In this document: piece after piece, positions 9,503-62,886 of the stretch
Numbering within the stretch: the first letter of the stretch is position 1
Layout: each line of letters begins with the position of its first letter
Assembly (NCBI GenBank): GCA_951406725.2
Contig: OX597835.1
Location: 24,180,001 to 24,244,000 of the forward strand
DNA length: 64,000 bases
Source of the DNA: Octopus vulgaris
Taxonomy: Eukaryota
Reading direction: 5' to 3'
Position numbers and translations under genes: made by a program
The notes under the pieces: model-generated
What the model saw: only the letters and a program-made list of their open reading frames with translations
Databases searched by the model: none
Told to the model about the DNA's origin: nothing

Positions 9503-9820
9503 TACCGGAGTAAACACAAATGTGAAACAAGGTGGAAAAAAGAGTACTCAAATACCAGGGGTAGAGTAATATGTTTTATTTAAAGGCAACAGAAATTCAA
9601 CAAAACCTGTTGCTCGGAGTTTCACGTTCCCGTTCGTCAGACAGTTTTGTTAAAATTTCTGCTGCTTTTAAATAAAGTATATATGTTTTCCCTTCTCTGG
9701 ATCTTTCCTTCTCCTATGTTTCCGACAAAGAGCCCCGCTCGAAACGCGTCCAATAATACTATATTTGTTCCATGTCCTCGCGTTGTGTTTTTTTGTGCTT
9801 TCGTGTTTGGATTAACTATA
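9503..9820. mobile_element. Penelope-like pseudo-LTR foldback element (family H1) plus an adjacent H4-like terminus
   Basis: Between (TA)n tracts, with inverted arms; homologous to 60442-60655 and 90-172; contains hammerhead-like cores. Confidence 0.6.
9601..9649 (-). ncRNA. Minimal type-I hammerhead ribozyme motif (one core lesion)
   Basis: Minus strand reads CAAAACUGU-CUGACGA-ACG GGAA CGU-GAAACUC C GAGCA-ACAGGUUUUG: stem I, core and stem II present; cleavage triplet is GCA instead of GUA. Confidence 0.7.
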
Positions 9821-11686
9821 TATATATATATATATATATATCACAGTATCCACCAGACTGTCAAATGTTGTTATACTTTGCTGGTCACAATGTACTTTGC
9901 ATTGTTTTAGCTTTTAAATGATGCCACTCCATGGCCTAAGCAGGCAAGCAAACATCCCCCCCCCCCCCCTAATTGGGGTATTCCATTGAAGCTGAGTCAG
10001 CTGGAGCAGTGAGAAATGAAGTGTTTTGCTGAAAAACACAATGTGCTGCCAGGTCTGGGAATTGAACACATGATCTAGCAATTGGGGAATGCAGCACCTA
10101 ACCTCTGGGCCACACGCCTTCATATGGGTATATGTATTTATATAAGTACGTGGATGTGTGGGCGGTATATTATTAGGGGCCAATGCTAACTTGGTATGTA
10201 TGTATGTGTATATATATATATACTCTCAAAAGTAAATAGACACCTTTCATTATATTGTTTTTACCTGTGTGGACACAATCTGCTACTTCAAACATGTTAA
10301 TGTGTTATGTGCAAGGCATGTCTACTAAATATCGGAATAAGTATTTAAATGCATCAAATTAACCTCTTTTTTTTTCTAGAAATAAATCTTTAAAAAATAA
10401 CGTGTGTGTCTATATGTATATATATATATATAGACACGTACACACAGTAAGTTTTGAAAATCACAAAATTGTGAAACCAGTAAAATAAACCTCTTTTTCT
10501 TGTGTACATATGACACAGATTTACAAATATTTACAAAGGAAAAAGGTGTCACCTACTTTTTTTTTTTTTTTTTTTTTGTAAGTTGTGTTAATATGAGACC
10601 TTTTGTGACTCAGGAAGCAGTTATGACTCATTCTTGAATATCATTGGTCTTTTTTTTTTCTCCACCAGGAATGTAATCAATTTCTTACATGCATTGGTCG
10701 ATAGGGTGATGCCTCTATATTTTTCTGGTCCCTATAACCAGAGACCTTTAGAAAAAGTCATAAGAGCATCTTTTTTCCTTTCCTTTTTTTTTTTTTTAAT
10801 TTTTTAAAATATTATTTTCTTTCTATTGTGGGTTGTAATTAATTTTCTAATTTAGAAACAAGGACAGCAATTTTGTGGGGAGCTGAACTAAATATTTTCG
10901 ACCTCTGTACTTGACTGATACTTTATTTTAACCCTGAAAGATAAAGGGGAGAACTGACTTTGGTAGGATTTGACCTCAAAGTGTAAATGACTGGAGGAAA
11001 TATCAGTATTTTGTCCATTGCACTTATGATCCTGACTACTGAGTGCAGAACATCAGTTCAGGTTTTACTTACAACATACCAACACAATGGATGTTGTAGC
11101 AAGTTTGTTTGTCATTTAGACTACCTGGCTGACAAACCCAGGTAGATGCTTCCACTTCAGTATTGTATAAGTTAATGAGAAAAACAAAGAAATGCAACAG
11201 CTGAAAAACAAAGCAAGACATCTGGTGTTTTACTTGTTTGGCAAGTAAATTGATTTGATCTGATCTGAGCCGAGATTGAGAGCACGTCTTAAAACCTTAA
11301 CAAATACATTAGAAAAAGAATTTCACACATACAACAAACACACACATATGTGTGTAAGCGTGCATGTACACATGCCATTGTGTGTTCAATTTTGTTTTGT
11401 TTCATGTTAAGACTACTCTTACTTTCACAAGTTACTCTTTGATGCAAAACTGTTTTGAAAATGTTCATATCAAAACCTAAATTATAAACTTCTCATTGTA
11501 ATTTGATTTTACAAAAACCTGTTAAGTTTGTTCCTTAGCATCGGTTTAAACCCTTTTTGTGACCACATTCCTATCAAAATACACTGATTTTGTTTTTTAT
11601 AAAGTGACAAAAACTCTCACTAGACATCTGTGACTGGATCACTGACACATCCTTACCAAGTAAGAATGTTTTTTGGCTGGAGAATA

Positions 11687-12094
11687 TTAACCCTTTAGCA
11701 TTTAAACTGGTCATATCCATCCAAAATATTGTTTTATGCTCAAACTGGTTAGATGTGGCCTTTCACTTCAATCCTACAATATCATTCTAAAAATTAAGTT
11801 ACCTCATTAAAATCTCAAAGCTATGAGATAATGCAGGATTAAATAAGCATTACATTTGACAGAATAATCTGAATGCTAAACAGTTAAACTAGCCATATCT
11901 AACCCAGATATTCTATTTTCTGTTCAAACCATCCAGATCCAGCCTCTCACACCTACCTTACAATGTCATTCTAATAATAAACAATCTCATCATTGAAATC
12001 TTGAAGCAATGAGATAATGCAGGATTAATTCAAAAGAAGGTGGATTAAATAATCATCACTATTGGCAGAGTAATCTGAATGCCAAAAGGGTTAA
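11687..12094. mobile_element. piggyBac-like TTAA MITE, tandem pair (other copies about 25326-25547, 57961-58188, partial 49590-49680)
   Basis: Ends TTAA-CCCTTTAGCATT...AATGCCAAAAGGG-TTAA with a shared ~200 bp body. Confidence 0.75.
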
Positions 12095-12099
12095 AGGGT

Positions 12100-12600
12100 T
12101 GTGTTCCTTTGAAACCTAAATTATTGTGGTATCTGGTCCTAACCCTTAATAGTGAAGGTGACACTTTTGAAACTATGTAGTGTCATCCTGTGTAGGGATT
12201 TTTGTAGTTTTCAATGCCAAAGTTTGGTACAAGTTCCTCAAGAACCTTCCAGGCATGTCATATCATATTTTTCTTGTCTTCACTTCAGGAAATAGTTTTA
12301 ATTCTTTCAGTCTTTCCCAGTAACTCATCTGTTGTATCTAAGCCATCTTCTTAGTGTTGCAGCATTGGATTGCTTCAGATTGTGACATTAATTTCACACT
12401 AAGGGACAGAAGGGGCCCATAGTTGAGAGCAGTAGTTAAATGTTAGATGTGCTATTTGCTTGCTTAAATGATTATTGTGACTGTTTCAGGGTAGATATAC
12501 ATAAACATAAAAAGTACCCCACTTCAATAATATTCAAATGTCAAAATTTGCATAAAACACTCTTTATTTGGTAGCAAGGAAACTATAAATAGAAAATAGT
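12100..12600 (-). mobile_element. Degraded CR1/L2-group LINE ORF2 3' fragment
   Basis: Minus strand QQMSYWERLKELKLF resembles the SYWERLxxLxLYSLERRR motif at the C-terminus of CR1/Jockey-group ORF2. Confidence 0.55.
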
Positions 12601-60441: not shown

Positions 60442-60652
60442 TTTATTTAAAGCAGCAGAAAATTCAACAAAACCTGTTACTCTGAGTTTCCTGTTACCGT
60501 TCCTAGCAAAAACTGTCCGATGAACGGCAACGGGAAACTCAGAGTAATAGGTTTTGTTGAATTTTCTGCTGCTTTAAAGAAAGCATATTACTCTATCACT
60601 GGAATTTGAGTACTCTTTTTTCCACCTTGTTTCACATTTATGTGTTTACTCC

Positions 60653-60655
<3 letters not shown>
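60442..60655. mobile_element. Penelope-like pseudo-LTR foldback, family H1
   Basis: About 60-bp inverted arms plus an unpaired tail homologous to 9503-9575; abuts (TA)n. Confidence 0.65.
60507..60556 (+). ncRNA. Minimal type-I hammerhead ribozyme motif (variant core)
   Basis: CAAAAACUGU-CCGAUGA-ACG GCAA CGG-GAAACUC A GAGUA-AUAGGUUUUG; GUA cleavage triplet intact, with a U4C change and one stem II mismatch. Confidence 0.68.
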
Positions 60656-60690
<35 letters not shown>

Positions 60691-62676
60691 GGTGACTGAA
60701 CCAGCTTCAACTCAGTCATTTGATCTGCTAGAAATAGCAGCTAAATATCTTTCCACTCAAACACAACTGACTTATATTAAAGGATACGTTGTATAGTGTA
60801 GTCTGTGATTTCCAAAGCCATTGTAGGAGGCTCAACGAAACACACGGACACACATCCTGGAATAACAAGATATAGTTTTCAATGAGATACAGTTTCCCTC
60901 ATATTACGTATGAGATTCATCTAGAAGACATTTGTTCGAAAACTATATTCAGGCGTAGATATAGTTCTTTATTGGTTTCATATTTTGGCACAAGGCCAGA
61001 AAATTCGGATGGGGGGAGGGGAGGTAGTAAGTCGATTACATCAACCCCAGTACGCAACTGGTATTTAATTTATTGACCCTGAAAGGATGAAAGGCAAAGT
61101 CGACCTCAGTGGAATTTGAACTCGGAATGTAGCAAAGGGCAAAATTCCACTCAACATCTTGTCCAGCATGCTGACGATTCTGCCAGCCAGCAGCCTTTAG
61201 TTGTTTATATATATCAATGTATAGTGGAGGTGGGGTGGGGAGAGAAGTAGTTTCAAGTTTTGACACAAGGCCAGCAAATTCAAGGGGTGATGGTAAAGTC
61301 AATAACGTCAACCCTGGTACTTTAACGGTCCTTTATTTTATCAATACTGAAAGGACGAAGGCAAAGTTGACCTTGCTGGCATTTCGACTCAGAGTGGAAC
61401 AAACTGAAAGAAATGCTACTAAGCATTTTGTCTGGAGTACTAACGAGTCTGCTAGTTTGCCGCTTCATAATAATTATAATTCTTTCTACTAAAGGCACAA
61501 GGCCTGAAATTTTGGAAGGTGACGCTCGTTGATTACATAGTCCCCAGTGTTTAACTGGTACTTATTTTATTGACCCCCCAAGAGGGATGAAAGGCAAGGC
61601 TGACCTTGGCTGGATTTGAACTTGGAACATAAACCCGCAAGAAATACCACTAAGCAGTTTGTTAGACTTGTTAATGATTCTACCATCTCACTGCTTTAAT
61701 TATCATAATTAATAATTGTTATGTTAGTAATGTTAAATGAAAATGCTATTGAAAATAATATCCATATAAATTGTTTAAAAACTTGAGTGTGTGAATGCGT
61801 GGACAGGTGTATGTGCATGCGTCTGTGTGTGTGTGTGTGTCCTTGTTTTTTTCTGTGTATCTTTCTGTCGAAGAGCGTAGGCTCGAAACATAAAAGACTT
61901 GTTCTATTTCTATTCCTGAGCACCATACAAATACATTTGTTTGTTTGTACTCCATCTGCCTTCGTCTTTTGTTAATTTTCGTAAACCTTCCCGTTATATA
62001 TATGAAATCCTGGGGAAGTTTAAAATTTCAATTTGTGAAGTTTGCATAATTTCAGTTCTAGATTTGATAAAATTCATCAGTAATGTTTTTTTTAGCAGCA
62101 AGATAAAACTATTTTATCATCAGCAATTATAATTTGTTTTTATATCAATTAATTATTCAAAGAACTTAATAATCACTTTGTATTTATTTCATAAGCTCGT
62201 ATAAAAGACTCCCACTTATTCAACTAAAACCCATTTTATATTTGACTAACAAGCCTGGAATATGGGATTCAGAATATAACTAGAAAAAAACTGCTGCATA
62301 ACAATGAGTAAATACAAAATGATTGTGGCCAGAATGACCGCAGGTATTTGAAGATTATATTCTCGAGATTAAATTCCTTTACTTATACTTCCTACAGATT
62401 AATTTAGCTGTATACAGATCTAAAGTTGTAGAAATTTAAACAAAGCTTTGACAATAGCCATAAACTATGTATATATAACTCTGTTACATGCATACACACA
62501 CACATATATATATCTTAGGTCCTGGTGGGGTATTTCCAGGGAAGCACTCACCCTGAGTTCTGAGCTGTCAACACTGTCAGATTCCTGACTGATAGCGAAA
62601 TTCTTCAAGTGTAGAAAATCCTAGTTTCACGATGGTGAAACTGTTTTGTTGGTGCAGTGAAGAGTAAGCTATAAAT

Positions 62677-62886
62677 CCAAATGAAGAGATTAAAGAAATC
62701 CTTTAACACATCTTTAATGATGCATTACAATTGTTTCTGTGCCAACTCTGCTTGCAACATCAGTTTACACAATATTCAAAGTGAAAATTTACATAGACTG
62801 GTGTTGAAAGCAGAGTTGGTACAGAAGCAATTGTAATGAATCATTAAAGATGTGTTAAAGCATTTCTTCATCCTATTATTTGGATC
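62677..62886. mobile_element. Foldback element with ~90-bp arms (family H5)
   Basis: ctttaacacatctttaatgatgcattacaattgtttctgtgccaactctgc versus gcagagttggtacagaagcaattgtaatgaatcattaaagatgtgttaaag. Confidence 0.7.

Follow-up and report, generated by a model that had tools for sequence, protein, structure and literature searches.

Penelope-like element ends with minimal hammerhead motifs in a 64-kb stretch of the Octopus vulgaris genome

A 64,000-nucleotide (nt) stretch of Octopus vulgaris contig OX597835.1 (assembly GCA_951406725.2, positions 24,180,001 to 24,244,000), called the window below and representing 64 kb of a 2.8-Gb assembly, was full of TA/TG microsatellites and dispersed repeats. 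Among the repeats were short families, here lettered A to H and K. A first-pass annotation of this DNA had described short, sequence-unrelated families at several of these places and had taken them for non-autonomous, ribozyme-bearing relics of Penelope-like elements (PLEs) or retrozymes. Families of this kind were present at the named places, each with many candidates in the genome. Our reading, with a probability of about 0.88, is that A, B, D and E are the 5'-truncated 3' ends of PLEs, that C, F and K are likely PLE 3' ends too, that H is a tandem unit, and that the hammerhead motifs in these families are predicted to cut element RNA.

Hammerhead motifs in the families and in the window

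A minimal type-I hammerhead, with core boxes, stems I to III and a UH cleavage site, was present family-wide in A, B, C, D, E, F, H and K. In A, C, D, E, F and H the parts were ordered as stem I, 7-nt box, stem II, GAAA, self-complementary stem III, UH and stem I, and the self-complementary stem III, a requirement for dimers, was retained in each family having a core. Each family query gave 606-5,434 first-look candidates, which are not copy numbers, and 40 of them were scored; letters were counted per position in motif-spanning copies selected for likeness to the query.

The core of H was canonical: U4-A6, G8, A9, G12-A15.1 and U16.1 were each found in 41 of 41 copies, while position 7 was free (25 A, 10 G, 6 C). 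Among 124 copies of A, position 4 was C in 72 and U in 50, and the remaining core was largely kept (G5 in 115, A6 in 119, G8 in 118, A9 in 124, G12 in 120, A13 in 123, A14 in 124, A15.1 in 120 and U16.1 in 119). The youngest intact A subfamily had fully canonical boxes, and A subfamilies exchanged one GNRA loop for another (33 young and 29 old of 68 matched). Position 4 was also split in B (49 C and 16 U in 65 copies), and position 6 was U in 81 of the 86 E copies. In both C and D the C3:G8 pair was swapped for U3:A8, with U3 in 52 and A8 in 50 of 53 copies of C, and U3 in 28 and A8 in 31 of 32 copies of D. These core variants, U3:A8, U4C and A6U, prevail across whole families. Longer copies of F had the CUGANGA box about 95 nt upstream of GAAA, leaving a stem-loop II of about 95 nt (13 pattern-matched rows). 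Other intact PLEs in the genome had the same type of motif in both of their pseudo-long terminal repeats (pLTRs).

The claim that each family has such a core held at the family level for A, C, D, E, F and H, but most window copies were decayed or partial (Table 1). Point changes were found in the cores of the E copies, and at 17.6, 62.8 and 34.7 kb the ribozymes claimed were incomplete or missing. The plain pattern CUGANGA...GAAA occurred at ten places in the window, just one of them within a named family. A structure-aware descriptor of our own design, which required stems I, II and III and tolerated one of U3:A8, U4C and A6U, passed two window motifs (A at 60,517 and K at 31,383), whereas 50 dinucleotide shuffles passed 0.1 on average. 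In an evenly spaced sample of 20 stretches of 10 kb each, 200 kb altogether, there were 20 matches at 14 loci, seven of the matches belonging to one array of 359-nt units, compared to a mean of 0.2 in 30 shuffles; 3 of the 14 loci look weak. The motifs are in this way more frequent than expected by chance in both the window and the sample.

A density of one element per 6-8 kb had been proposed for the window. Element ends, numbering 12 in 64 kb, bear this out; intact ribozymes, numbering 2, do not. Scaled up, the sample would correspond to 1.5-2 x 10^5 motif loci per genome, a rough figure because the sample was only 200 kb. Counts on the order of 10^5 would exceed the 2,000-9,000 given for fluke, coelacanth and frog in the text of Cervera and de la Peña (PMC4209133), and a published figure for axolotl, as cited, is up to 120,000 in a much larger genome. 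At least nine more unrelated minimal-hammerhead families were seen in the sample (L464, L465, L467, L468, L470, L476, L477, L478 and L479), and the L476 motif lay 1 kb downstream of a Hydra-type frame.

Rfam searches gave zero matches at gathering score in the window or at 14 loci. Among the 150 of 450 weak window matches that were listed there were just microRNA look-alikes over TA/TG repeats, and for G and H nothing relevant appeared at E ≤ 10.

Table 1. Copies of the short repeat families in the window (positions are those of the window)
Feature	Position	Strand	Description
A	9505..9677	-	Hydra-type PLE 3' end: pLTR and ~70-nt tail, plus short inverted tail-less arm
A core	9,611-9,640		U16.1 lost
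B	9686..9816	+	3' end of a PLE with reverse transcriptase and GIY-YIG frames, adjoins (TA)n; unnamed in first-pass annotation
B core	9,722-9,747		decayed
C foldback	13650..13832	+	tailed arm on -, tail-less arm on +; no open reading frame link found
C core	13,758-13,797		U3:A8 type, decayed, GAAA box broken
E	15461..15650	+	GIY-YIG PLE 3' end; A6U core 15,526-15,553, decayed
C foldback	17500..17660	+	ribozyme 3' half only, in both arms
K	31300..31452	+	ends in (TA)n; missed in first-pass annotation
K core	31,383-31,420		canonical minimal hammerhead, passes descriptor
D foldback	32011..32256	+	GIY-YIG PLE 3' end
D core	32,134-32,163		U3:A8 type, G12 lost, GAAA box broken
G	34161..34285	+	end of tandem unit of ~810-826 nt without open reading frame; conserved motif at ribozyme position, no valid core
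H foldback	34691..34948	+	cut off downstream of ribozyme; copy without any ribozyme
A foldback	60441..60654	+	core 60,517-60,546 (U4C) passes descriptor; tail adjoins (TA)n
E copy	61841..61996	+	A6U core 61,865-61,892, one stem III change
F foldback	62675..62886	+	ribozyme 3' half only, CUGANGA box absent; no open reading frame link found

Family K was old and low in copy number, and some of its relatives matched on both strands. A further foldback at 15731-15904 (+) adjoins (TA)n; no hammerhead boxes were seen in it, and no second copy was found among 220 loci. The window may start inside a gene, as one or more Band 7/SPFH (stomatin-like) exons lie at 1834-2085 (+) and 2579-2638 (+). A broken long interspersed nuclear element at 43427-45524 (-), with a reverse transcriptase (RT) frame (Pfam RVT_1), has a dispersed repeat on either side in inverted orientation (42,395-42,670 and 47,592-47,867, 97% alike), and another inverted pair, 92% alike and spaced about 250 nt, lies at 37726-37815 and 38063-38155.

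Coding parents, element ends and tandem units

Family A leads to a coding element. At 14 of 25 A loci, which had been chosen by an upstream query, nuclease-domain frames lay upstream of the ribozyme and on its strand. Searching with a natural A frame gave 150 scored matches, many with a stop-free frame of 727 amino acids (aa), and A lay downstream of the frame in 28 of 30 loci chosen by protein. At seven of the eight full loci, A was found on both sides of the stop-free 727-aa open reading frame (ORF), and two of these were tandems with a period of about 3.36 kb. The A family is young, since nine intact A ORFs differed from one another by only 0-47 of 2,181 nt. Contigs from four sequencing runs, whose run type was guessed, span most of the A element and are uninformative on its ends or expression.

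The A protein has the motifs DKT and YRDD, a CxCX5C linker and VxY..YxG, all of which hardly vary across an alignment of 117 sequences (YRDD in 117 of 117, and the Y and G of VxY..YxG without change). The last is a GIY-YIG-type motif, and CCHH is absent. A structure model made from the 117 sequences (predicted local distance difference test, pLDDT, 93.5) had telomerase TERT (3du5) as its best PDB match, at E 1e-9; a single-sequence fold was uninformative (pLDDT 33.7), and sequence searches of PDB with the A protein were blank. There were 1,074 relatives of the protein, one of them with PF01541, and its nuclease aligned weakly (E 1e-7) to that of a Pfam-positive GIY-YIG PLE. The marks of the Hydra clade seen in the parent of A were DKT in place of DKG, the CxCX5C linker, the lack of CCHH, a (TA)n target and a hammerhead. 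Judged by its sequence, A is the pLTR of a young, intact Hydra-type PLE with a telomerase-like RT plus a GIY-YIG nuclease at the C terminus, and its clade is assigned by comparing these marks to the published description.

A second young PLE family was observed (L223:1068-4768, L225 and L221), in which a 479-aa first frame overlaps a stop-free 781-aa RT/GIY-YIG frame and both pLTRs contain a U3:A8 minimal hammerhead. To our knowledge, a separate first frame is unusual among nuclease-bearing PLEs.

Coding parents were also found for B, D and E. A shared untranslated region (UTR) of 1.9 kb upstream of B leads into RT and GIY-YIG frames at two of nine extended loci (tblastn), and the UTR is common end to end to three loci, a third locus sharing it. 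A GIY-YIG frame was found upstream of E at 4 of 20 loci, with the UTR shared at 82-87%, and upstream of D at 2 of 25 loci. In B and E, a Zn-finger linker and a CCHH-type nuclease would indicate elements of Neptune/Nematis type. The first-pass annotation had suggested a search for linkage to GIY-YIG/PLE-RT ORFs, and its description of the families as non-autonomous does not apply to these four, which are the 3' ends of coding PLEs; it does apply to H, and to G in form only, there being no valid core in G. The GIY-YIG search returned other PLE families. Neighbours of window families that proved to be adjacent insertions, on the opposite strand or separated by other repeats, were excluded. The uncounted neighbour loci were L195/L238, L202/L221, L196, L198, L207, L039/L245, L060/L241, L157, L103, L370, L380, L418, L421 and L441.

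The ends of the copies have a shared anatomy. Among 101 ends of the A body, TA follows directly in 56, and 35 continue with a tail of about 70 nt. TA also follows 46 of 58 tail ends, and 8 go on with the stretch found ahead of the ORF in full elements. The arms of a foldback are unequal, one having the tail and the other lacking it, and the junction varies among copies; most copies are one-armed, with variable 5' ends. A tail together with an inverted copy is a known signature of PLEs, and for the anole PAc Poseidon element the tail is described as arising from reverse transcription that initiates inside the RNA (PMC11167929). The hairpins are thus, by their anatomy, inverted truncated PLE copies and do not have the pattern of a DNA transposon. 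Most copies do end in (TA)n as had been claimed, but not all are hairpins: the window copies of E, B and G are one-armed single copies. The association of PLEs with minimal type-I hammerheads and inverted truncated pLTRs, which the earlier annotation had given as known, was seen directly here. Formation of the hairpins by snap-back at stem I was considered and rejected; a cluster of spans of about 106 nt follows the query, and unselected foldbacks have varied junctions.

Two families are tandem units without an ORF. The H unit is about 467 nt long, with six same-strand spacings of 434-476 nt and a seventh of 786. Its own tail lies upstream of its body, the tail-to-body junction being identical at 5 of 40 loci, its longest stop-free frame is 52 aa, and its G+C content is 31%. 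From these features H is a retrozyme-like tandem unit with a canonical core, and it is likely moved by PLE enzymes. The G unit is about 810-826 nt long, and its tail continues into its body at 7 of 40 loci. The hammerhead that had been tentatively proposed for G, at 34.2 kb, was not supported: a core calls for G8-A9, a GAAA box with A15.1-U16.1, and stem I, and a GAAAC box was absent from all 49 listed rows. A rod-like motif stands at the hammerhead's usual place in G (window 34161-34285; L398), and its outer stem exchanges G-U, G-C and A-U among subfamilies. A resemblance to the hepatitis delta virus ribozyme, judged by eye, was rejected for want of a P1.

Tandem organization was also observed elsewhere. 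Family C was expanded as a local tandem array with units of 122-170 nt at L033:1570-2300. The 359-nt ORF-less units of the array in the evenly spaced sample (L460:2700-4560, C1 near 20.0 Mb), with a canonical type-I hammerhead, are present as five copies on the + strand and two on the - strand, and appear from their sequence to be a classical non-LTR retrozyme, with no relation to any family of the window.

A proposed cycle and its alternatives

In the proposed cycle, a tandem or pLTR-flanked master copy would be transcribed, and the hammerhead in each pLTR would free a unit-length RNA, perhaps circularised, as the literature suggests. Self-cleavage is predicted from the motifs, the folding of monomers and dimers having been judged by base pairing, and it would likely take place in dimers, because stem III is a short palindrome or a tiny hairpin in most families. 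The GIY-YIG nuclease of the element would nick (TA)n, and the telomerase-like RT would begin at an internal point of the RNA, immediately downstream of the ribozyme, and so leave a tail on one end, a mechanism taken from the account of PAc Poseidon (PMC11167929). Most events would end after 100-300 nt, many would add an inverted, tail-less second copy to give a hairpin, and the inserted copies would then decay. The distance between the 3' end and the ribozyme is about 40-190 nt, so that even very short copies hold all or part of the motif.

Several observations weigh against this reading or parts of it. An ORF link was found at none of 50 loci for C and none of 45 for F, in 1.5-kb flanks. Pfam gave no match to the 727-aa A protein, and its nuclease is assigned from motifs and the weak similarity to a GIY-YIG PLE. 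B, E and an older A subfamily became widespread with cores of the U4C or A6U type, and U4C and changes at A6 reduce activity in vitro (PMC3088659); G spread with no valid core; and Naiad PLEs have no hammerheads at all according to the text of Craig et al. (10.1101/2021.04.23.441226). Since the U4C/A6U families and the coreless G have spread, cleavage may be weak or dispensable. Conservation alone is weak evidence, because the counted copies were picked by likeness to the query and a young family keeps every position. Retention of the fold is better indicated by the exchange of C3:G8 for U3:A8, by the freedom of position 7 and by the replacement of one GNRA loop by another. Finally, insertions keep no trace of cleavage, since a 5' end within 3 nt of the predicted site was found in just one bystander copy out of 82 (16 of A, 23 of B, 2 of C, 5 of D, 26 of E and 10 of H). 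Truncation at the 5' end was accordingly rejected as a mark of the cleavage site, and the B and E breakpoints around -100 may be due to divergence of subfamilies from the references used.

These points lend most to an alternative in which the PLE ends are as described above, but the fold no longer cuts and instead binds protein or positions the RT close to where reverse transcription starts. Presumably slow cores, with U4C, A6U, a 2-bp stem II or a loop II of about 95 nt, prevail in successful families, G is coreless, 5' ends show no peak at the cleavage site, and Cervera and de la Peña report that PLE minimal hammerheads are poorly active in vitro, a monomer not at all and dimers only slightly (PMC4209133). 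However, the boxes of H and of the youngest intact A subfamily are canonical throughout, position 7 varies freely between neighbours that do not, and every family with a core has kept the self-complementary stem III. We consider a fold that has lost cutting unlikely, though it deserves serious attention. It seems doubtful, in the opposite direction, that the genome holds some 10^5 minimal hammerheads in dozens of Penelope-type families, with supposedly crippled cores (U4C, A6U, 2-bp stem II, 95-nt loop II) that still cut in a natural dimer or protein-bound setting and with G as an unrecognised self-cleaving RNA.

A further alternative would make all of the families non-autonomous retrozymes or relics resembling short interspersed nuclear elements (SINEs), with no coding parent. 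H, a tandem unit that lacks an ORF and has a canonical core, would suit such an origin, as would the ORF-less, tandem G, the short tandem array formed by C at one locus, the 359-nt hammerhead array in the sample, and the failure to find an ORF for C or F in their flanks. It is refuted for A, B, D and E, which continue through a shared UTR into RT/GIY-YIG frames at independent loci, and for the set as a whole it is very improbable. That the hairpins are miniature inverted-repeat transposable elements (MITEs) or foldback DNA transposons with hammerhead-like words by chance, as their length and near-perfect pairing, the TA on their flanks and their many copies might suggest, is scarcely credible and is refuted for A, B, D, E and H, because the fixed inverted repeats at both ends of a DNA transposon, which the first-pass annotation had named as the contrary finding, are excluded by unequal arms, variable junctions and 5' ends, a one-armed majority and upstream RT/GIY-YIG frames, and because U3 and A8 covary and descriptor matches are 20- to 100-fold above shuffles.

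Relation to known elements

The reading of the families as PLE ends agrees with much that has been published. Features shared with the PLE minimal hammerheads described in the text of Cervera and de la Peña (PMC4209133) are the presence in both pLTRs, the self-complementary stem III, U3:A8 covariation, an additional nucleotide separating A9 from stem II, the occurrence of many unrelated families in one genome, the predominance of solo truncated copies, and opposite-strand pairs. Stem II is different, ranging here from 2-3 bp in A to a stem-loop of about 95 nt in F, compared to 7-8 bp there, and whole families dominated by U4C or A6U are, unlike in that description, found here. The main text of that study, its supplementary figures aside, includes no cephalopod.

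Family A shares with the Hydra-clade PLEs in the text of Craig et al. (10.1101/2021.04.23.441226) a single ORF, DKT, the CxCX5C linker, the lack of CCHH, a hammerhead, (TA)n insertion, a tail and inverted truncated copies. Its unit of about 3.36 kb is longer than the less than 3 kb general for the clade, and its tail of about 70 nt is longer than the 30-40 nt of PLEs in general; in that text, Octopus is named for Naiads only. With anole PAc Poseidon, as described in PMC11167929, the copies share an AT-rich target and a tail made up of the stretch running into the ORF, although PAc Poseidon belongs to another clade and its mechanism is only inferred to apply here. H resembles animal non-LTR retrozymes as described (PMC7229834; 10.64898/2026.07.22.740005) in being ORF-less, low in G+C and tandem with a canonical type-I core, but retrozymes are reported in long arrays (PMC7229834), whereas the H monomers form partial tandems with a PLE-type tail, inversion and a TA target. 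Retrozymes have been proposed to be non-autonomous PLE derivatives (PMC7229834; preprint by Li, Clavereau and Pollet, 10.64898/2026.07.22.740005).

A 2026 octopus repeat annotation reports 31 recently active PLE families (PMC13282606), and the words 'hammerhead' and 'ribozyme' are absent from its main text, its repeat library aside. No paper dealing with hammerheads in the repeats of an octopus came up in our literature search; that repeat library, supplements, Repbase and Dfam lay outside the search and may hold these families.

Minimal hammerheads in pLTRs, the U3:A8 variant, the Hydra clade and non-LTR retrozymes have all been described already, and the families are new members of these groups. 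The kind has been known since 2014 and will not surprise a specialist. Automatic annotation, on the other hand, would label these short hairpins MITEs or SINEs, though they are PLE ends. H is a retrozyme-like unit that inserts in the manner of a PLE, with a tail, inversion and a TA target, which is consistent with the preprint as described (10.64898/2026.07.22.740005). A young intact Hydra-type element with a canonical core, natural core variants, and an ORF-less partner together make a ready set for asking whether transposition needs cleavage.

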